A stretch of DNA of 64,000 bases, from contig CAVSJV010000017.1 of the NCBI GenBank assembly GCA_963728405.1, forward strand, positions 192,001 through 256,000, read 5' to 3'. Both the position numbers and the translations under genes were made by a program. The first letter of the stretch is position 1; every line of letters starts with the position of its first letter. A model generated the notes under the pieces. It saw only the letters and a list, made by a program, of their open reading frames with translations, did no database searches and was not told the DNA's origin. Shown here one piece after another: positions 33,464-40,558 of the stretch. The stretch comes from Methanomassiliicoccaceae archaeon (lineage in GTDB: Archaea > Thermoplasmatota > Thermoplasmata > Methanomassiliicoccales > Methanomassiliicoccaceae).

Positions 33464-33751
33464 ATGATCGCTGAGTTCAGCGTGGTTCCGATCGGGGCAG
33501 GAGAGTCCGTGAGCCCCTATGTGGCCGAATGCTTGAAGATCGTAAGGGATAGCGGACTGAAGTACGAGTTCACTGCCCTTGCCACCATAGTGGAGGGCGA
33601 CTATGATCAGGTCCTGGGAACGATAGGGCTGTGCCACAAGAAGGTCCGCTCCATGACCGACCGGGTCATGACCACCATACGAATCGATGATCGGAAGGGA
33701 GCAGTGAACGAGATCGAGCGTAAGGTTAAAAGCGTGGAAGAAAAAATGTAA
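33464..33751 (+). CDS. MTH1187 family thiamine-binding protein
   Basis: AEFSVVPIG..SVS.YVA, T.VEG, RV.T.IRIDDR. Confidence 0.9.
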   Translation: MIAEFSVVPIGAGESVSPYVAECLKIVRDSGLKYEFTALATIVEGDYDQVLGTIGLCHKKVRSMTDRVMTTIRIDDRKGAVNEIERKVKSVEEKM

Positions 33752-33793: not shown

Positions 33794-35404
33794 TCAGATC
33801 TGCAGGTAATCCCGGTTGCCGAACTTGCTCAGTTCGACCGAGCGGACCTCTTGGAAACCTTTGACCGCCGCCATCTCCTTGACAACGGCCTCGCTGACCG
33901 GGTTATCCACGGAAACGAGCATGAGGGCCTTTCCACCCTTCTGGTCCCGACCCAGGCCCATCCGGGCGATGTTAATGCCCTTGCTGCCCAGCATGGTCCC
34001 GATGCGTCCGATTATGCCTGGCATGTCGGCATGCACGGACAACAGGAAATCGCCTTCCAGGGGCAGGTCCAGGTCATACTCATCGATGCCCAGAAGCCTC
34101 GGCTCAGAGCCGGGGAAGGCCGTACCGCGGACCTCTCTCTTGACCCCGTCCGATTGCAAGGACACCGAGATCATGTTAACATAGCGCTTGGATTCCTCGA
34201 CCTTGACCTCGACGATCTGGATGCCCTTTTCCTTAGCGATCAGCTCGGCGTTGATGATGTTCGGCTGCTCGCCCGAAAGGTTCGACAGTACGCCCATGAG
34301 GGCAGATACTGTCAGCATCTTGGTGTCCACCGTCGCCAGGTCCCCGTAGACGGTCACCTGGACCTTGGCCACCGGGGCGTCGGTCAGTTGTACCGCGAAC
34401 GCACCGAGGAGCTCGGCGACGGATATGAACGGTACCACCTTGGGGTCCATGCCCCTCACGGGGGCATTGACCGCGTTGGAGATACGCTTATCGAGCAGGA
34501 ACATCTTGACATGCTCGGCCATCTCCACCGATACCTTTTCCTGCGCTTCCTTGGTCGAGGCGCCCAGGTGAGGCGTCACTACGATATTGTCAAGGGTCAG
34601 GAGCTTGGAACCGGTAGGCGGCTCCTTCTCAAAGACGTCCAGCGCCGCGCCGGCAATCGTCTTGTTCTTCAATGCCTCGTAGAGCGCCTCCTCATCGATC
34701 AGCTCGCCCCGGGCAACGTTCAGTATGATGGCGTTGGGCTTCATCTTGGCGATGAGCTCCTTGCTGATCAGGTGATGAGTGCTGGGTGTGAGGGCGGCAT
34801 GGATGGTGATGACGTCAGCTTCTTCGATGACCTGCTCCAGCGGCATGAGGCGGACGCCCAACTTCACCGCGACCTCGGGCGATATGTAGGGATCGTAACC
34901 GACCAGCTTCATCTGGAAGGACTTGGCGCGCCTGGCCACTTCGCCGCCCACCCGGCCGATACCCACTATGCCCAGGGTCTTGCCGTACAGTTCGAAACCG
35001 GTGAACTTGGACCGCTTCCATTCGCCTTTCTTGAGGGATGCGTCGGCCCATACGACATTGCGGGCAAGGGACATCATCATAGCCATGGTGTGCTCGGCGG
35101 CGGAGATGATGTTGGCGGAGGGCGTGTTCATGACCAGGATGCCCCGGCGGGTAGCGGCCTTGACATCGACATTGTCCACACCGACGCCGGCCCGGCCGAC
35201 GACCTTGAGATTCTTCCCGGCCTCGATCACCTCGGCGGTGACCTTGGTGCCCGATCTTATGATCAGCGCATCATAGTCCCCGATGATCTTCATCAGCTCC
35301 TCGTGGGGGATGTTGGGCCGGATGTCCACTTGGACCTGACCGCCCCCCCTCAGCATCTTCAGGCCCTCTTCCGAGAGCTCGTCGGTAACCAGCAGTTTGA
35401 TCAT
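33794..35404 (-). CDS. serA: D-3-phosphoglycerate dehydrogenase with ASB and ACT domains
   Basis: GRAGVGVDNVD, GIGRVG, NVARGELIDE, TPHLGAST.EAQ, D.PGIIGRIG..LG...INIA. Confidence 0.95.
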   Translation of the reverse strand: MIKLLVTDELSEEGLKMLRGGGQVQVDIRPNIPHEELMKIIGDYDALIIRSGTKVTAEVIEAGKNLKVVGRAGVGVDNVDVKAATRRGILVMNTPSANIISAAEHTMAMMMSLARNVVWADASLKKGEWKRSKFTGFELYGKTLGIVGIGRVGGEVARRAKSFQMKLVGYDPYISPEVAVKLGVRLMPLEQVIEEADVITIHAALTPSTHHLISKELIAKMKPNAIILNVARGELIDEEALYEALKNKTIAGAALDVFEKEPPTGSKLLTLDNIVVTPHLGASTKEAQEKVSVEMAEHVKMFLLDKRISNAVNAPVRGMDPKVVPFISVAELLGAFAVQLTDAPVAKVQVTVYGDLATVDTKMLTVSALMGVLSNLSGEQPNIINAELIAKEKGIQIVEVKVEESKRYVNMISVSLQSDGVKREVRGTAFPGSEPRLLGIDEYDLDLPLEGDFLLSVHADMPGIIGRIGTMLGSKGINIARMGLGRDQKGGKALMLVSVDNPVSEAVVKEMAAVKGFQEVRSVELSKFGNRDYLQI

Positions 35405-36471
35405 TTCATCGTCTCCAGGACCTCGTCCATGTTCCTCAACAGGCCGCGGACCTCCTCGACCGTCAGGTCGCCCATGTGGCCCACCCGGAAGGTCGCGTCC
35501 TTGATGTCCCCGTAGCCGTTGGAGATCTCATAGCCGCGCTCCTTGAGGCCCTTGTTGAGCATGCTAAAGTCAATGTCGCCCCGGTTTATCACTGTGATGG
35601 TATCGGAGAGATAGCCCGGCTCGGCAAACACCCCATGGCGCTTCCGGGCCCAGGACCGCACCAGCTCGGCCATCTCCTGGTGGCGGCGGTATCGGGCGGC
35701 CATGCCTTCCTTAAGGATCCTTTCCAGTTGGAAGTCGAGGGCGTACATCAGGGACACCGGGGGGGTGGTGAGAGAGTAGTTCTTGTCGGCCATCTTCTTC
35801 ATCTGGATCAGGTCAAAGTAGTAGCCCTTGTTCGGCACGGTCTTGGCCTTCTCCAGCAGACGGTCGGAGCAGCAGATGATCGCTATCCCCGGGGGGAGCG
35901 CCAAAGCCTTCTGCGTGCCGAATATCAGGGCGTCCAGGTCCAGCTCCTTGATCTTGAGGTCCGAACCATAGATGGCGGTGACGCCGTCCACGAACATCAA
36001 TGGGTCGTGGTCCTTGCGGACCGCTCTGACCAGGTCCTTCACCGGGTTCAGCACGCCAGTGGAACTTTCGTTCGCGACCACGGCCACAGCCTCGATGTCA
36101 TCGGTCAGCTGGCCCTCCAGATCCGCCGGCTTTACCGCCTTGCCCCAGGCCCCGTTGAGCTTCTTGACCTCCTTGCCGTTCTCGGTACCGATGCCCTGCC
36201 AGCGGTCTCCGAATGAGCCGTTGGAGATGCCCAGCATCTTGCTCTTGACACCATTCCGTACGCACGCCTCGAGAAGTCCAGAGGCGGAGGCCGGGGACAT
36301 CATGATGTGCATGTCGGTGTCCAGGGTCTTGTGGAGCTTCTCCACAATGCGTTCCTGGAGCTGCTCGTACTCTTTGCTCCGATGAGTGATCATCGGCCTG
36401 GTCATGGAATCGAGGACCTCTTTGCGGACCTCGACCGGACCTACGGTGAACAGTGTGTGATTCACAGACAT
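35401..36471 (-). CDS. Class V aminotransferase, probable phosphoserine aminotransferase
   Basis: LFTVGPVEV, HRS, NESSTGV, VDGVT, GTQKALALPPG, FRVGHMG; overlaps serA start (ATGA). Confidence 0.88.
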   Translation of the reverse strand: MSVNHTLFTVGPVEVRKEVLDSMTRPMITHRSKEYEQLQERIVEKLHKTLDTDMHIMMSPASASGLLEACVRNGVKSKMLGISNGSFGDRWQGIGTENGKEVKKLNGAWGKAVKPADLEGQLTDDIEAVAVVANESSTGVLNPVKDLVRAVRKDHDPLMFVDGVTAIYGSDLKIKELDLDALIFGTQKALALPPGIAIICCSDRLLEKAKTVPNKGYYFDLIQMKKMADKNYSLTTPPVSLMYALDFQLERILKEGMAARYRRHQEMAELVRSWARKRHGVFAEPGYLSDTITVINRGDIDFSMLNKGLKERGYEISNGYGDIKDATFRVGHMGDLTVEEVRGLLRNMDEVLETMK

Positions 36472-36525
36472 CCCCCGAAAATCTCCCGGCGCTTCAGGCG
36501 CGAACAGGGCAGACAGGGGACATCC
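36466..36525 (-). promoter_or_regulatory. Hairpin sequestering the aminotransferase start codon
   Basis: GGAUGUCCCCUG (36525-36514) pairs 12/12, four G-U, with CGGGGGAUGUCU (36477-36466); inner GCGC-CUGAA-GCGC holds the uORF stop. Confidence 0.6.
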
Positions 36526-36673
36526 GATAACGTCCTCCACATCCGCATCCCGATCCGCATCCGTCGGCGGCGCTCGTCATGTCCAGCATGCGCTCTGCCC
36601 TTGATAATGCCAGATAAGGAAAATCCTGTATTGAGGGCATGACAGCATGTGGCATGTTGATTTCCGGTATCAT
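36494..36673 (-). CDS. Putative Gly/Cys/Ser-rich leader peptide (59 aa; alternative start 36655)
   Basis: Hand translation MIPEINMPHAVMPSIQDFPYLALSRAERMLDMTSAADGCGSGCGCGGRYRMSPVCPVRA*; TATA-like TTTATATT at 36690-36683. Confidence 0.55.
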   Translation of the reverse strand: MIPEINMPHAVMPSIQDFPYLALSRAERMLDMTSAADGCGSGCGCGGRYRMSPVCPVRA

Positions 36674-36692
36674 GAAGATATGAATATAAACT

Positions 36693-36721
36693 TTCCTATG
36701 CCATGCTGGCAGGCATAGGAA
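36693..36721. terminator. 10-bp inverted repeat, possible terminator of the CMD gene or operator
   Basis: TTCCTATGCC-n9-GGCATAGGAA, about 15 nt after the CMD stop and adjacent to the next TATA box. Confidence 0.45.
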
Positions 36722-36736
36722 TGGCGATAGAAAAGG

Positions 36737-37148
36737 TCACCTGATGGGCTGGGCCACTTTTGATGCTTGCTTTCCCATGTACTCGCCGATGCGGGCGACC
36801 TCCTCCTTGAACTTCTCCAGGTCGTAGTTCTGAGCGTGGATCATGGCGCTCCAACGCGAAGTGTAGCTGGCCAGGAACACCAGTTCAGAAAGCTCTTCCT
36901 CCGTGGCGCCTTGACCTTTGGCCATGGTAAGGTGCATCAGTTGACAATATGGGCATTTAATATTGGCCGCGATGGCCAGCCCTATCATCTCACGATATTT
37001 CGGAGGGATCGCCGATTCTCCGAACTGGTACTTCTTCATCAGCTCCCAGTCGTTCACCAGGACAGTCCTCAGGCAGCGCCTTGTAGAAGTCCGGGACGAA
37101 CCCAAAGGTCTTCTTTATGTCCTCCAATGTGTCTTCGTAGCTTCCCAT
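36737..37148 (-). CDS. Carboxymuconolactone decarboxylase/AhpD-like protein, one frameshift near 37063
   Basis: MGSYEDTLEDIKKTFGFVPDF...; IPPKYREMIGLAIAANIKCPYCQLMH (CxxC..H). Confidence 0.85.
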
Positions 37149-37195
37149 AAGGGCACCAGGACCTTACGTCTCCGCTGACGGCTAATATAGTTTCC

Positions 37196-37546
37196 TTATT
37201 TGGTCCCTTTCCGGACCGGAGCCTTGCTGGCCTTGCCCTTCACCAGCTTCTTGTCCCGCTCCTGCGCTTCCTTCAGCGATTCCAGCTGTACTATCTCGAT
37301 CTCGAAGATGTCGGCGCAGGGCAGCTCGGCGATGGTGTCGTCCAGGATCTCCTCGTTCTCCACGCTCATCACGAACGCCGCGGAACGCTGCCCGCTGAAG
37401 AAACCCCCGCTCAACATACCATCCTTCTCCATCCCCAGCAGCATATCGATACTGGGAAGGATCTTCATTTCAACGATCTCCCTGTTCTGCTCTTCGGTCT
37501 CGCCCACTCCGCCCTCGCTGAGCTTCATCAATACCAGGAATTCCAT
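37196..37546 (-). CDS. Muconolactone isomerase-like/DUF3303-like small protein, paralog 2
   Basis: MEFLVLMK...GGFFSGQRSAAFVM...LD..IAELP...FEIEIVQL. Confidence 0.65.
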   Translation of the reverse strand: MEFLVLMKLSEGGVGETEEQNREIVEMKILPSIDMLLGMEKDGMLSGGFFSGQRSAAFVMSVENEEILDDTIAELPCADIFEIEIVQLESLKEAQERDKKLVKGKASKAPVRKGTK

Positions 37547-37594
37547 GTTCTCACCGGACCACTTATGATTGTACTTGACGTCATCTTTTTCCCG

Positions 37595-37936
37595 TTATAG
37601 GCCTGCTGCGGACCTCATCTCGTTGACGATCCGGCGATCTCTCTCCAGGGCCGATGATATCCTTTGGACGGGGGCGACATCGACATCATACACATCCATC
37701 ATCGGCAGGCCGGCCAGTATCTTGTCCAGTTCCAGATTGTCCTCGGCCTCGAATATGAACGTCCCGGACCTCTGCCCCTCGAAAAAACCGCCCATTACCT
37801 TGTGGTCGCCCTCCATCTCCATCAATCTTTCCAATGACGGCATTAGCTGGTCGGTCAGCAGGAATGCGGCCTCCTCCGACGAACCACCATAGGATTCCTC
37901 CCTCAGCTTGAAGATCACGACGTACTGCTCGGCCAT
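37595..37936 (-). CDS. Muconolactone isomerase-like/DUF3303-like small protein, paralog 1
   Basis: YVVIFKL...GGFFEGQRSGTFIFEA....LD.ILAGLPM...DVDVAPV. Confidence 0.65.
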   Translation of the reverse strand: MAEQYVVIFKLREESYGGSSEEAAFLLTDQLMPSLERLMEMEGDHKVMGGFFEGQRSGTFIFEAEDNLELDKILAGLPMMDVYDVDVAPVQRISSALERDRRIVNEMRSAAGL

Positions 37937-37957: not shown

Positions 37958-40558
37958 CTATTTAGTTGTTCTATTCTTGATGGCCTTCAGTGCCTCCAAC
38001 CAGAAGGAGCCGACGATGGCCAGTCCGAGCGCCAAGGCCCAGTTCCCTGCGCTCAGAGCGGTGGTCTTTACCGCACCATAGAGGGGCGGCACCGTGGTCA
38101 CCGCTATCGCGAACAGGCCAGCGGCTAGAGCCCAGACCACCATGGTGCGGTTGGAGAGCGGACCGATCTCGAATAGCGAGCGGTCCTGGGAGCGCATGTT
38201 CAGAGCGAGGAGCGCATGACCGACCAGCCAGGTCACGAAAGCCATGGTCTGCGACGGGGCCAGATCATGGGTGCTGTTCCATGTCAAAAGATAGGCCGCC
38301 GTGACGGCAAAGATCAGGCCGAGGGAGCTGACGAAGATGCTCAGGACCATCGAATGATCCATGAACGATGCCTTGGGGTCGCGGGGCGGCCGTGACATAA
38401 GTGCGCCGTTCGACCGCTCGGCCACAAAGGCCGCCGCCGCCCCTAGGTCCATGAACAGCTCCAATAGAATTATTTGAACGGGCGTGAAGGGGATCGGCAG
38501 GAACGCAAGCACCGCTATCAGAGTGATGGCGATGAGGGCCACCTTACATGCCAAATAGTAACGTACCCCCTTTGTCAGGTTGTCGAACAGGACCCTTCCT
38601 TCCCTGACCGCCCGGGCGATGGTAGCGAAGTTGTTGTCCGCTAGGACCATGTCGGCCGACTCCCTGGCCACATCCGTGCCACCCTCCCCCATAGCGATCC
38701 CGATGTCCGCTGATGCCAGCGCCGGTGCATCGTTGATGCCATCCCCCGTTACCGCGATCCGTTCACCGTTCGCTCTAAGCGCCTTGACGATGCGCAGCTT
38801 GTGTTCCGGAGTCACTCGGGCATAAACCCTCTCCTCCCGGACGGCTTTTTGGAGTTCGGCATCGCTCTTACTGTCCAGGTCCACACCGGTAAGGACGTGG
38901 CCATCATTCTGCAGACCCACCTTTGCGGCTATGGAGACCGCGGTGAGGGGGTGGTCCCCGGTCAGCATTATGACCCTTATGCCCGCGGCCGAACAGGTTT
39001 CGATAGCGTTCTTGGCCTCGGGGCGGGGAGGATCGGCCAGGCCGATGAACCCTACGAACATCAGATCGGATTCGGCGCCCTCGATATCGATCCCATCGGT
39101 GCCCTCCTTCTCCGCCACGGCCAATACTCTCAATCCGCGGGAGGCCATGGCTGCCGCCTGCTCCAGGATATTGCCTCGTTCACCGCTACCCAGTGGTGCG
39201 GATGAACTGCCCTCGCCCATAGCGATGCATCGGGAGAGTATGCTCTCCGGCGAGCCCTTGGCCGCAACCCGATGTTTGCCGTCGGAATCATAGACGACCG
39301 ACATTCGTTTGCGGATGTTATCGAAGGTATGCTCGGTGATCAAGGGGTTCCTATCTCTTATCGCCGATACGTCGGTTCCGTCCCTTAGGGCCTCTTCTAC
39401 CAATGCGATATCCAGCGGGTCCCCTTCTACTTCACCCTTGGATAAGCGGGCGTCGTTGGCCAGGATCGCCAGGTGAAGTATCCGTTCCCTATGCTCAGCA
39501 GGAAATAATTCCTGGATCTGCATTCGATTGGTGGTGAGCGTACCGGTCTTGTCCGTACATATGACCGTGACCGCCCCCAGGGTCTCCACCGCCTGCAGCC
39601 TTTTGACCACCGCATTCTCCTTCGAAAGACGATAACCGCCAATGGCCAGGACCATAGTGATTATTATCGGCAGCTCCTCAGGAATGGTGGCGAAGGCCAG
39701 TGAGAGGGCGGTGAGCAGCATCTGCTGAGGGTCCTGGCCGTTCAGCAACCATCCCAGCAACGGGACCAGGACCGAGAACCCGATGGCGAGCAGCACCATC
39801 CACTTGGTCAGATCGTTCATGGTCCGCTGCAGTACGGTCTTAGGCGGATGTTCCTTGCGAGCCAGACCGGCAATCCGGCCGAGCTCGGTGCCCATTCCGA
39901 TGGCAGTGACCACCGCCGTGCCCCGCCCCCTGGTGACCACGGTCCCTGCGAATACTATGTCGGTCCGTTCGGCCAGGGCAACCCTGGCGGGGACCGGGGC
40001 AATGGCCTTCTCCTGAGCGGCCGACTCTCCAGTCATTGCGGCCTCTTCGACCGACAGGCCATAGGATTCCAGCAGCCGCGCATCAGCGGGTACTCGGCGG
40101 CCCGACTCCAGAACAATGATGTCCCCGGGCACTACTTCCTCGACCTTGATCTCGATGTCCTTTCCATCCCGACGCACCGTGGCGGTCGGTTCCGACAGAC
40201 TGTTCAGGGCCTCGATGGTCCTTTCCGCCCTGATCTCGTTGTAAATCTCCACGAATACCAGGGCGATGATCACCGCAAAGATGGTCAGGGAGTCCTCGAG
40301 CTTGCCCCAGAATGAATATAGAACGCCGATGGCGAACAACAGCAAGATCATCGGTTCAGTGAGCTCATGGGCCGCCTCCGACCACCAGGGCAGCTCCCTC
40401 CGTTCGGACAACCGATTCTTTCCGAACCTCTCGGAACGGACCTTGGCCTCTTCGGTAGAGAGGCCATCCGCATTTGAACCCAGTCTGGCGAGGACGGCCG
40501 CTCCGTCCATGGACTGCCAGGCCTCCCTCTCGGCCATGTTCCCGGACGGCACGATCAC
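37958..40558 (-). CDS. P-type cation-transporting ATPase (type II, Ca2+-like)
   Basis: TGES, IPEELP, DKTGTLT, KGSPE, DPPR, TGDH, GDGINDAPAL. Confidence 0.93.
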   Translation of the reverse strand: MIVPSGNMAEREAWQSMDGAAVLARLGSNADGLSTEEAKVRSERFGKNRLSERRELPWWSEAAHELTEPMILLLFAIGVLYSFWGKLEDSLTIFAVIIALVFVEIYNEIRAERTIEALNSLSEPTATVRRDGKDIEIKVEEVVPGDIIVLESGRRVPADARLLESYGLSVEEAAMTGESAAQEKAIAPVPARVALAERTDIVFAGTVVTRGRGTAVVTAIGMGTELGRIAGLARKEHPPKTVLQRTMNDLTKWMVLLAIGFSVLVPLLGWLLNGQDPQQMLLTALSLAFATIPEELPIIITMVLAIGGYRLSKENAVVKRLQAVETLGAVTVICTDKTGTLTTNRMQIQELFPAEHRERILHLAILANDARLSKGEVEGDPLDIALVEEALRDGTDVSAIRDRNPLITEHTFDNIRKRMSVVYDSDGKHRVAAKGSPESILSRCIAMGEGSSSAPLGSGERGNILEQAAAMASRGLRVLAVAEKEGTDGIDIEGAESDLMFVGFIGLADPPRPEAKNAIETCSAAGIRVIMLTGDHPLTAVSIAAKVGLQNDGHVLTGVDLDSKSDAELQKAVREERVYARVTPEHKLRIVKALRANGERIAVTGDGINDAPALASADIGIAMGEGGTDVARESADMVLADNNFATIARAVREGRVLFDNLTKGVRYYLACKVALIAITLIAVLAFLPIPFTPVQIILLELFMDLGAAAAFVAERSNGALMSRPPRDPKASFMDHSMVLSIFVSSLGLIFAVTAAYLLTWNSTHDLAPSQTMAFVTWLVGHALLALNMRSQDRSLFEIGPLSNRTMVVWALAAGLFAIAVTTVPPLYGAVKTTALSAGNWALALGLAIVGSFWLEALKAIKNRTTK

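Follow-up and report, generated by a model that had tools for sequence, protein, structure and literature searches.

A conserved upstream ORF and a covarying RNA rod as a candidate ribosome-operated switch of the aminotransferase-serA operon in Methanomassiliicoccales

The operon composed of a class-V aminotransferase gene and serA in a Methanomassiliicoccaceae archaeon (GCA_963728405.1, contig CAVSJV010000017.1) is preceded by a leader which, on balance, we regard as probably a translational attenuator operated by the position of the ribosome. The leader combines (i) a short upstream ORF (uORF), (ii) conservation of its reading frame, (iii) a three-tier RNA rod (P1-P2-P3), which contains covarying base pairs and the SD of the aminotransferase gene, (iv) a uORF stop codon placed in the apical loop of this rod, and (v) an exclusive link with the aminotransferase-serA operon. 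The analyzed DNA (the window) comprises 64,000 nt (positions 192,001-256,000 of the contig), and the features distinguished within it are listed in Table 1. Every element described in the first-pass annotation of this DNA, i.e., a TATA-like box, an ORF, a Gly/Cys/Ser run, a stem and a stop codon in its loop, is present in the sequence, although the start codons of the uORF and of the aminotransferase gene had to be redefined and the proposed direction of the regulation is reversed in our model.

Table 1. Features of the leader and of the downstream operon (coordinates refer to the window).
Feature	Coordinates	Strand	Description
TATA box TTTATATT, leader promoter	36683..36690	-	Preceded by a purine-rich, BRE-like AAAG
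Upstream in-frame ATG	36671..36673	-	Just 16 nt past the TATA reference point; opens a 59-codon ORF (36673-36494)
Conserved uORF	36494..36655	-	53 codons + TGA; peptide MPHAVMPSIQDFPYLALSRAERMLDMTSAADGCGSGCGCGGRYRMSPVCPVRA
Gly/Cys/Ser block GCGSGCGCGG	36533..36562	-	(GGA NNN) repeats with GGA GGA at the end
Decoy SD (anti-anti-SD) GGAGGACGUU	36529..36538	-	GGAGGA; 5' arm of hairpin H1
Anti-SD strand CGGAUGUCCCCU	36515..36526	-	5' arm of P1; 36516-36524 doubles as 3' arm of H1
Rod interior	36481..36514	-	P2, 36514-36507 with 36487-36481; P3 hairpin, 36501-36489
P1 3' arm	36465..36476	-	SD GGGGGAU, spacer and first base of the GTG start
Class-V aminotransferase gene	35401..36465	-	Pfam PF00266; start set at the conserved GTG (36465-36463)
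serA, D-3-phosphoglycerate dehydrogenase	33794..35404	-	ASB and ACT domains; TIGR01327 and Pfam domains

No NCBIfam equivalog matched the aminotransferase above its cut-off, and the gene context suggests that the protein acts as a phosphoserine aminotransferase. The assignment of serA is based on a TIGR01327 score of 659 bits (cut-off 454); its start overlaps the aminotransferase stop (ATGA), and it was found directly 3' of the aminotransferase gene in all 30 loci compared. The aminotransferase start (36465) is GTG, ATG or TTG in 44 of 45 relatives, while a second in-frame ATG (36471) was found only in the family represented by the window. Concerning the direction of the pathway, the best matches to the SerB and SepRS models scored below the respective cut-offs (89 bits vs. 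144, and 61.5 bits vs. 380.65). Glycine, cysteine and one-carbon units derive from serine.

The motif RNAAGKTTTATAT is located upstream of every related leader inspected. The uORF starts with the second in-frame ATG (36655), which lies 32-34 nt past the TATA reference point in 45/45 relatives. The first-pass annotation had distinguished a 59-codon uORF; such an ORF does exist, but its ATG has an equivalent in 11 of 29 relatives and is probably located outside the transcript, so that 53 codons remain from the conserved start. The presumed position of the transcription start site (TSS) would make the uORF leaderless or near-leaderless, and its conservation suggests that it is translated. A histogram of TATA-to-ATG distances for 2895 long open frames showed no peak, the TATA matches being too few to calibrate the TSS. 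The sole evidence for co-transcription of the uORF and the operon is one RNA contig of a relative, assembled from a metatranscriptome and spanning 36272-36628, which shows no start and may represent DNA carry-over. Small parts of the region were recovered from two RNA runs only, as contigs from which no start, end or level can be read.

The uORF is open in all 45 orthologous leaders of Methanomassiliicoccales (47-64 codons) and ends with TGA, TAG or TAA; its absence from relatives, or that of the Gly/Cys/Ser run, which the first-pass annotation had named as grounds for abandoning the idea, was therefore not observed. In 29 sequences, the uORF frame contains no stops in 1557 codons, vs. 18-60 stops in the other five frames. 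The distances from the ATG to the decoy SD take 13 values, of which 11 are multiples of 3 and cover 42 of 44 sequences. Indels within the uORF preserve the frame (multiples of three), whereas those located 3' of it do not. No third-position excess was detected over the whole uORF. The absence of stops and the indel pattern indicate a short upstream ORF kept open by selection. Compared with the neighboring gene, the uORF is enriched in Cys (4.2-fold), Ser (2.4-fold) and Gly (2.0-fold), and the rare codon GGA constitutes 60% of its Gly codons, vs. 10% in that gene. Codons for amino acids of the pathway are thus concentrated in the leader.

The block has a common layout in 44 leaders, with Gly at offsets -8, -6, -4, -2, 0 and +1, and Ser or Cys at -7, -5, -3 and -1. 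Gly, Ser and Cys account for 81% of the 11-codon block (the closing zone of the model presented below), and Ser makes up 24% of the tail of the uORF (the opening zone), where no leader lacks a Ser codon. Synonymous variation, the search for which had been suggested by the first-pass annotation, has its counterpart in a codon-like pattern within the block: in 6 of 8 codons (offsets -8 to -1), the third position varies more than the other two, and at one block position Ser is encoded by both the TCN and AGY families in different lineages. The anti-SD region has the reverse pattern of variation. Within the block, GGA recurs five to six times with 3-nt spacers and a strict 6-nt period, and the third position of these triplets is nearly invariant, which fits a constraint at the RNA level as well as at the codon level. 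The GGAGGA of the decoy SD forms one arm of the predicted hairpin H1, which is present in the minimum free energy (MFE) fold of the leader in the window and, when folding is local, in the MFE structures of 43 of 44 leaders. Pairing in H1 amounts to 75.8 and 87.2% in two registers, compared with 40-64% for slid controls, and cognate arms pair better than swapped ones by 2.3 kcal/mol. Covariation in H1 is weak, with no significant pairs. Any GGA-GGA pair complements an anti-SD, and H1 could partly be a by-product of this complementarity; we infer that it acts as a functional competitor of the rod.

In the window, P1 comprises 12-13 bp (36526-36515 with 36476-36465) and is present in the local MFE, whose z-score is -2.23 (4 of 200 shuffles fold as well). 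The fold of the full 226-nt leader, taken alone, is unexceptional (z = -1.11), and the strength of the case lies in the comparison across genomes and not in the single sequence. Covarying pairs, also proposed as a check in the first-pass annotation, were found in P1: of its 12 pairs, 5 are changed on both sides, 96.1% of the alignment cells are paired, and none of 500 shuffles was as good as the real alignment. In a second set of 25 leaders, 95.3% of the P1 cells are paired. The downstream SD and start are thus predicted to be paired in a conserved helix. The earlier claim that this stem covers the region before the start together with the AUG holds for the SD and start as such, but the conserved start codon is the GTG at 36465. 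P3 consists of a GCGC/GCGC stem and a 5-nt loop that contains the uORF stop (TGA, 36496-36494), and the stem sequences of P2 and P3 vary between lineages. The position of the stop in the apical loop, noted already in the first-pass annotation, recurs in relatives: it is fully unpaired there in 36 of 44 leaders, vs. 513 of 2200 shuffles. The z-scores of the rod average -4.5 and are below -2 in 40 of 44 leaders, and the distances from the stop to the SD and to the start are 19-29 and 31-40 nt, respectively. The uORF therefore terminates within the structure hiding the downstream start, as is expected for translational coupling.

The following model is proposed for the leader. Transcription would begin a few bases 5' of the ATG at 36655, so that the 53-codon uORF would be a leaderless first cistron. 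The pyrimidine-rich strand, composed of the anti-SD (36526-36515) and the tract 3' of it, would have two pairing options: backward, with the GGA-repeat/decoy-SD strand, giving H1 and leaving the SD free, or forward, with the SD proper plus the initial G of the GTG, giving the rod and hiding the SD. The ensembles of H1 type and of rod type differ by about -7 to +10 kcal/mol; the folds are thus predicted to be nearly iso-energetic, and the position of the ribosome would choose between them. A ribosome on the block would cover the decoy, which would lock the rod and switch the operon off. The 5' strands of all three tiers of the rod would be occupied by a ribosome that is translating the Ser/Pro-rich tail or terminates in the apex. 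The SD would then be single-stranded about 20 nt ahead of this ribosome, and the operon would be switched on by fresh initiation or re-initiation.

Both effects were obtained in a ribosome-masking simulation of 44 leaders, i.e., an equilibrium model with bacterial-like footprints which ignores co-transcriptional kinetics. With the P-site on the block, opening of the SD was predicted to cost +3.6 to +8.1 kcal/mol more, and the rise exceeded +1 kcal/mol in 73-93% of the leaders. With the P-site at +2 to +11, the predicted cost changed by -2 to -3.6 kcal/mol. Smaller and larger footprints gave the same outcome, and opening was predicted only with the A-site at least 1-2 codons beyond the last Gly. 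A stall would accordingly disrupt the SD helix at the tail codons and close it at the Gly/Ser/Cys block; the tighter closure is predicted because the block is itself the competitor strand for the anti-SD. Since the position of the ribosome would open or close the SD, the output of the operon would track where ribosomes dwell. Regarding the amino-acid logic, our guess is that a shortage of Ser-tRNA prolongs the dwell in the tail and de-represses the operon, while a slow GGA block would reset or maintain the closed state. For the block itself, the simulation predicts that a shortage of Gly, Ser or Cys turns the operon off, which is opposite to the biosynthetic need.

It is with respect to this polarity that our model departs from the first-pass annotation, according to which a ribosome stalled by starvation on the Gly/Cys/Ser block would open the stem that sequesters the start and thereby induce the operon, in the manner of ermC/cat. 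This would be the physiologically sensible response, and the simulation with the largest footprint (P-15 to P+17) is not entirely hostile to it: with the last GGA in the A-site the effect is neutral (+0.4 kcal/mol), and one codon further the SD opens (-2.2 kcal/mol), which places the tipping point precisely at the two invariant GGA codons. Nevertheless, the block ends 6 nt 5' of the P1 stem, and with A-sites at all other block codons closure becomes tighter by +2 to +8.7 kcal/mol for three footprint sizes. We consider such a polarity improbable. A sensor acting in trans on the GGA triplets, either an amino-acid-activated multimeric RNA-binding protein resembling TRAP or HutP, or a small ligand, is another candidate: the bound factor would mask the decoy, the rod would close the SD, and translation of the uORF would merely counteract or reset this state. 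The strict 6-nt period of the GGA triplets with their nearly invariant third base speaks for such a factor, as does the strong closure of the SD predicted for a masked GGA strand, through which the end product would properly repress the operon. At trpE, TRAP favors the formation of a hairpin that sequesters the SD. Left unexplained by a trans-acting factor are the conserved open frame, the frame-preserving indels and the stop in the apex. Moreover, position 3 of the spacers is less conserved than positions 1 and 2, a codon-like pattern; the genes adjacent to the leader are not shared between families (7 loci spanning families); the element is single-copy and hence defines no regulon; it has no Rfam match; and no sign of folding is seen in its 5' part (mean z = -0.67; below -2 in 4 of 44 leaders). 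A factor of this kind therefore seems unlikely to us.

The leader could also operate without any sensing of amino acids, by constitutive translational coupling, in which the leaderless uORF only delivers ribosomes that unfold the rod, and the abundance of Gly, Ser and Cys follows incidentally from the need for a purine-rich strand that mimics the SD. The apex stop and the spacing between stop and start suit unfolding and re-initiation, and a GGA-(U/A)(G/C)N pattern by itself gives mostly Gly, Ser and Cys. Plain coupling, however, needs neither a competitor hairpin matched to its own anti-SD nor nearly iso-energetic alternative folds, and the use of both TCN and AGY codons at one Ser position of the block also argues against it; we consider this explanation improbable. 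Finally, the open frame is conserved and the motif in the window copy contains four Cys residues, as might be expected if the uORF encoded a functional small Gly/Cys-rich protein (e.g., metal- or redox-active) that is co-transcribed with the operon by chance. Yet the peptide is poorly conserved outside the block, the number of Cys residues drops to zero in some relatives (e.g., GSGRGRGG), no Pfam or NCBIfam match was found, and the C-terminal part is constrained as RNA and not as codons; a protein function is thus very improbable. The ribosome-position-operated attenuator remains our preferred reading.

Several other candidate mechanisms were rejected. A programmed +1 frameshift joining the uORF to the aminotransferase frame is contradicted by a comparison of 40 relatives, at least 10 of which have that frame closed no more than 14 codons from the start; in this check, open frames of 357-370 aa compare with a match of 356 aa. 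Transcription termination at the U-run 5' of the SD was discarded, as this run comprises 0-6 nt and is not conserved among the leaders, and no conserved hairpin followed by oligo-U was found as an alternative fold. An aptamer-like 5' domain found no support in the z-scores given above or in the result of alifold, which returned no consensus for 44 sequences. A possible helix between two CATGCC-type boxes in the 5' part was noticed by eye only. As for a neighboring regulator, the small muconolactone-isomerase-like genes located upstream are kept only in the window's family, and the neighbors of the leader in other families are unrelated (7 loci chosen to span families).

Among known systems, the closest parallel is offered by mycobacteria, in which ribosomes stalled on leaderless polycysteine sORFs free a sequestered SD (Canestrari et al., bioRxiv 10.1101/834739). 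The systems share a leaderless sensory uORF placed first, a run of codons for amino acids of the pathway, an RNA duplex that conceals the downstream SD, sensing by the ribosome and a translational read-out, all of which are predicted for the archaeal leader (10.1101/834739). The mycobacterial sORF, in the same account, is bacterial and senses one amino acid, unlike the archaeal Ser leader, and its Cys codons pair with the SD region, so that a stall frees the SD (10.1101/834739). In the Ser leader, the partner of the run is the anti-SD, so that three strands are involved; according to the simulation, stalling on the run would close the SD, and only stalling further on would open it. As another difference, the archaeal uORF extends across the entire 5' side of the structure that hides the SD and ends at its apex. 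The ermC/cat systems, as summarized in the same preprint, are similar in that a stall in a leader ORF decides between alternative hairpins and thereby the pairing of the SD (10.1101/834739). They differ from the Ser leader in being triggered by a drug and the nascent peptide, not by tRNA charging, and in having a leader ORF that ends before the SD-sequestering helix. We know of no archaeal example of translational attenuation of the ermC/cat type.

The serC RNA element of alpha-proteobacteria (Rfam RF00517) precedes a serC-serA operon; its final hairpin was proposed to hide the ribosome-binding site, and its effector is given as unknown (PMC1273637). As presented there, the element is a short two-stem structure without a uORF, and the Ser leader shares with it neither sequence nor a model match. 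A cmscan search of 36300-36900 against Rfam 15 (including serC RF00517 and glycine models; E up to 10) returned only a spurious SNORA55 hit (13.8 bits; gathering threshold 45). TRAP (trp) and HutP (hut) of Bacillus are attenuation proteins that bind triplet repeats in RNA. The Ser leader resembles their targets in having triplet repeats with short spacers beside alternative structures, one of which is able to hide the SD, but its repeats lie inside a conserved reading frame, and no such protein is known to us or was found here. With the trp, his and ilv attenuators it shares a leader peptide rich in amino acids of the pathway and alternative RNA folds; unlike them, it lacks a terminator, and its read-out is access to the SD.

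Searching 151 genomes of the order with a model of the leader gave matches in 60 at E ≤ 0.01, of which 44 were convincing. Each genome contains one strong match, always at the aminotransferase-serA operon, any extra matches being weak (E 2e-4 to 9e-3), and no match at E ≤ 1e-5 was found in 150 other genomes of the class. In the same genomes, order-wide, a canonical-looking Val/Ile/Leu leader peptide was observed 5' of ilvB (30/30). The ribosome-masking simulation showed no clear SD effect for the ilvB leader of this genome and gave no clue on its polarity. Given the presence of this leader in the same genomes, sensory leaderless uORFs seem to be in use in the order.

Control of amino-acid biosynthesis in cis by leader peptides is textbook biology in bacteria. 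Full-text literature searches for leader-peptide attenuation in archaea surfaced no case. It is tentatively possible, if rather doubtful at present, that Methanomassiliicoccales run a set of leaderless sensory uORFs, including the leaders of the serine operon and of ilvB, which would be the first ribosome-mediated amino-acid attenuation described in archaea, with the Ser leader representing a new three-strand, two-zone design of opposite polarity. Were this the case, dwelling on the GGA block would close the SD and dwelling in the Ser-rich tail would open it, by which the cell could tell a shortage of Ser from a shortage of its products. The comparative support for the candidate is unusually good (45 genomes, covariation and frame conservation), and the leader would control a central pathway, that of serine, in an order of methanogens from gut and soil. 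The leader may serve as a mutable system for asking whether archaeal ribosomes sense metabolites, how leaderless first cistrons feed SD-dependent downstream cistrons, and how a switch can be built from an SD, an anti-SD and a decoy SD, and the ilvB leader suggests that the principle may be used more than once in these genomes.

The class-V aminotransferase gene and serA form the operon downstream of the uORF (see table). The serA product scored 659 bits against a cut-off of 454 on its PGDH equivalog, and no NCBIfam equivalog exceeded its cut-off for the aminotransferase. From the operon context and from work on methanococcal enzymes, we infer that the latter is a phosphoserine aminotransferase. 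A strong orthologue was found in 40 of 41 related genomes, and serA directly follows the aminotransferase gene in 30/30 loci. Searches with SerB and SepRS models returned sub-threshold matches only.

Features of the leader, its surroundings and the second candidate leader
Feature	Position	Strand	Basis or remark
BRE/TATA-like element AAAGTTTATATT	TATA 36690-36683	minus	read from sequence
In-frame ATGs	36673 and 36655	minus	read from sequence
Run GGA TGC GGA TCG GGA TGC GGA TGT GGA GGA	36562-36533	minus	read from sequence
uORF stop TGA	36496-36494	minus	read from sequence
81-nt folding region	36535-36455	minus	13-bp stem
Candidate starts of aminotransferase gene	36463-36471	minus	G-run SD abuts ATG 36471 and lies 4-6 nt 5' of GTG 36465
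Class-V aminotransferase gene	downstream of uORF	minus	Pfam PF00266
serA	overlaps aminotransferase gene by ATGA	minus	TIGR01327 (PGDH equivalog)
CATGC-type boxes	36580-36655	minus	four boxes
Relative's metatranscriptome contig	36272-36628		about 94% alike
Three small genes	36737-37936	minus	directly 5' of leader
866-aa ORF	37958-40558	minus	resembles P-type cation ATPase; weak SerB HAD match
Thiamine-binding-protein-family gene	33464-33751	plus	PF01910; convergent to serA
Val/Ile/Leu uORF	G000:C17:76602-76673	plus	23 codons; locus L092/L093

Upstream regions were inspected for all 40 aminotransferase orthologues, and the same leader was present in 29; the 11 lacking it comprise four from one genus of the same family, four from one genus of another family and three from a third family. 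A covariance model built on 28 leaders gave matches at E <= 0.01 in 60 of the 151 sampled genomes of the order, 44 of them convincing, with one strong match per genome; 16 of the 44 were new, all directly 5' of the same aminotransferase gene. Among 150 other sampled genomes of the class, none matched at E <= 1e-5. The total set comprises 45 leaders, and the element is single-copy and exclusive to the aminotransferase-serA operon. An Rfam search of the window's leader found no match; Tandem Repeats Finder (TRF) detected a 6-nt repeat in it. The sole expression datum is the metatranscriptome contig of a relative, which bridges the aminotransferase gene and the uORF past its Gly/Ser/Cys block; its start is not visible and it may be DNA.

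In 45/45 leaders an ATG located 32-34 nt past the TATA reference point opens a frame of 47-64 codons, which ends with TGA, TAG or TAA 24-34 nt 5' of the codon 1 position of P0001 (the aminotransferase of the operon). The first-pass annotation had placed the start of this uORF at the first ATG (36673). Its frame was retained, but since that ATG follows the TATA by a mere 16 nt and occurs in just 11/29 relatives, the conserved uORF is the 53-codon one starting at 36655. The frame contains no stops in 1557 codons of 29 leaders, as against 18-60 stops in the other five frames, each of which has at least one stop in 11-26 of the 29. Between the ATG and the GGAGG motif, 13 different spacings occur (105-147 nt); 11 of them, covering 42/44 leaders, are multiples of three, and in the two remaining leaders the motif was matched elsewhere. 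The spacings from the uORF stop to the SD and to the start fall equally into all three residue classes. Length changes thus keep the reading frame within the uORF but not beyond it. The ATG is so near the TATA that an SD has no room, so the uORF is presumably a leaderless or near-leaderless first cistron; a genome-wide histogram of TATA-to-ATG distances was uninformative on the start site. A frameshift reading of the locus was also tested and rejected.

The 5' part of the uORF carries, in the window and at the same place in relatives, four CATGC-type boxes, which result in many Met codons (6/53 in the window); in many leaders two of these boxes, GUCAUGCC and GGCAUGAC-like, show mutual complementarity. 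Pairing of the start AUG is predicted in 34/44 leaders, and this 5' domain as a whole gave no fold signal (mean z -0.67). In three leaders from one family of relatives (loci L026, L029 and L030) the uORF stop is TAG. TAG readthrough is possible in pyrrolysine-using relatives; by eye, the L026 frame, if read through, would reach a TGA overlapping the GTG start (GUGA).

The run of Gly, Cys and Ser codons pointed out by the first-pass annotation recurs, with the uORF, among relatives. Codons were tallied in 44 leaders, with offset 0 placed at the 5' GGA of the invariant GGA-GGA doublet. Gly occupies offsets -8, -6, -4 and -2 in 22, 36, 38 and 38 leaders, Ser or Cys offsets -7, -5, -3 and -1 in 30, 35, 28 and 22, and Gly offsets 0 and +1 in 44 and 43, respectively. 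Entropy peaks at the third position in 6/8 block codons (offsets -8 to -1), and third positions are least variable in the anti-SD region 3' of the block. Ser is encoded by TCN at -5, by AGY at -3, and by both families, in different lineages, at -7. Judging from this third-position entropy and the Ser codon families, the block looks selected as codons. GGA makes up 151/253 (60%) of Gly codons in the uORFs vs. 77/766 (10%) in the neighbouring aminotransferase genes, and its third base hardly varies at the four 3'-most Gly positions; the choice of GGA is additionally explicable at the RNA level.

The true start of the aminotransferase gene is probably GTG 36465 rather than ATG 36471: a GTG, ATG or TTG is found at the former position in 44/45 leaders and this is the only start position kept across all families, ATG 36471 being confined to the window's family. 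The region around it forms an SD-hiding rod of three tiers (P1, P2 and P3). In the window, the 81-nt region folds with a 13-bp stem, in which CGGAUGUCCCCUG pairs with CGGGGGAUGUCUG (z -2.23; 4/200 shuffles as good); the whole 226-nt leader alone is unremarkable (z -1.11). The RNAalifold consensus is P1, the pairing of the anti-SD strand with the SD and start. Over 28 leaders, 96.1% of the cells making up its 12 pairs are formed; five of these pairs are changed on both sides (24 cells), none of 500 shuffles was as good on four of five measures, and slid controls were just 42-65% paired; in 25 leaders outside the window's family pairing was 95.3%. The proposed stem over the pre-start region was recovered, and the P1 3' arm takes in the SD (GGGGGAU and variants) together with the first base of the start codon (GTG 36465 in the window). 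Inside P1, a pyrimidine tract pairs with a GGRAG motif (P2), and the loop of a small hairpin (P3) contains the uORF stop. This codon was fully unpaired in an apical loop in 36/44 leaders, as against 513/2200 shuffles, and the surrounding stem sequences vary among lineages. The rod as a whole has a mean z of -4.5, with 40/44 leaders below -2, and we regard it as firmly supported.

Alternatively, the anti-SD strand can pair on its 5' side with the GGA-GGA pair and the few bases after it, forming a competing hairpin (H1), which is the local MFE in 43/44 leaders and longer in many, where GGA repeats pair with the pyrimidine tract. H1 pairing reaches 75.8% and 87.2% in the registers of two groups against 40-64% in slid controls; no significant covariation was found in either register. 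In swap tests, both inflated by the relatedness of the leaders, cognate decoy/anti-SD pairs were on average 2.3 kcal/mol better (of 1612 swaps 70% were weaker and 28% stronger) and cognate anti-SD/SD pairs 4.6 kcal/mol better (81% of 1646 swaps weaker). When the anti-SD is constrained to pair on one side or the other, the gap between the upstream and downstream ensembles ranges from about -7 to +10 kcal/mol, each being the favoured one about as often. H1 is moderately supported as a competitor, and on these models the decoy SD, the anti-SD and the SD would together form a balanced switch of three strands.

A ribosome footprint (P-site -12 to +14) was masked at each codon of 44 leaders, and the extra free energy keeping the SD-to-start window unpaired was calculated. 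The opening cost, on average 11.9 kcal/mol with no ribosome, rose by 3.6-8.1 kcal/mol with the P-site at offsets -5 to 0 (block; a rise above 1 in 73-93% of leaders) and fell by 2.0-3.6 kcal/mol at +2 to +11 (anti-SD, tract and P3; a fall above 1 in 52-64%). Footprints of -11/+11 and -15/+17 shifted the crossover by about one codon and otherwise changed nothing. The geometry agrees: a ribosome at the stop codon would cover the 5' strands of all three tiers of the rod, with the SD 19-29 nt past that stop. In 42 leaders, codons of the closing zone are 52.6% Gly, 18.0% Ser and 10.2% Cys; in the opening zone Ser accounts for 23.9%, with one or more Ser codons in every leader, Pro for 12.4%, Gly for 3.3% and Cys for 2.9%.

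On balance, we lean towards the leader being a translational attenuator operated by ribosome position. Translation of the uORF as far as the rod apex would expose the SD, either by coupling or through re-initiation; a ribosome lingering in the Ser-rich tail would extend this exposure, and one lingering on the slow GGA block would close the SD. The first-pass annotation had assumed the opposite polarity, a ribosome stalled on the block melting the stem. This is improbable: by the masking results, the block hinders formation of the stem and covering the block would lock it, so that the stall-on-block trigger is unsupported. Plain coupling without sensing is likewise doubtful.

A TRAP/HutP-like factor acting on the GGA repeats is unlikely, if slightly less so. 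That the uORF, open as it is in every leader, encodes a functional small protein is very improbable: its peptide is poorly conserved outside the block and no excess third-position variability was found over the whole uORF (29 leaders), as expected for a leader peptide with a 3' half that also serves as structured RNA. For the favoured attenuator, shut-off when Gly or Cys runs short would be the reverse of simple feedback, which could be reconciled if (i) sensing actually lies with the Ser codons of the tail, (ii) the block is a programmed pause resetting the closed fold, or (iii) the operon is licensed, not repressed, by charged tRNAs.

As to the neighbouring genes, one of the three small genes upstream of the leader belongs to the carboxymuconolactone-decarboxylase family (PF02627) and has a CxxC motif. 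The two others, in tandem, weakly match the muconolactone-isomerase-like PF02426 (29.6 bits, above the cut-off of 26.7, and 21.3 bits, below it); they stand 5' of the leader in the inspected genomes of the window's family and are absent there in other families.

Among described systems, the nearest is the mycobacterial attenuator with leaderless polycysteine sORFs, in which stalled ribosomes block an SD-hiding duplex (10.1101/834739). The present leader is of the same kind but differs in four respects: it is archaeal, it serves another pathway, it combines three strands, with the codon run lying on the anti-anti-SD one, and its uORF terminates at the apex of the sequestering rod. The alpha-proteobacterial serC element likewise lies 5' of serC-serA, with proposed RBS hiding (PMC1273637); it lacks a uORF and does not resemble the present leader. 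Titles and abstract openings returned by full-text literature searches contained no archaeal leader-peptide attenuator.

Scanning the window's genome for a TATA, an ATG 31-38 nt later and, opened by that ATG, a short ORF that precedes a long one yielded 48 candidate short ORFs. One of them, MPSGATKSSIVSSVLSVVVVLIR, stops 51 nt 5' of the TTG start of an acetolactate-synthase-like (ilvB-like) gene. With its orthologues (L094-L122), a uORF ending 50-61 nt 5' of the gene and containing a Val/Ile/Leu run (e.g., GVVVVLIR, AVVIIIS or VGIIIR) was found in 30/30 loci, each followed by a conserved hairpin (GAGGCAUCCAG...UGGGUGUCCUC). A masking simulation of the ilvB leader revealed no clear effect on the SD. 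This uORF looks like a classical branched-chain leader peptide, an order-wide candidate, and it raises the prior that ribosome-sensed leaders serve in this order.
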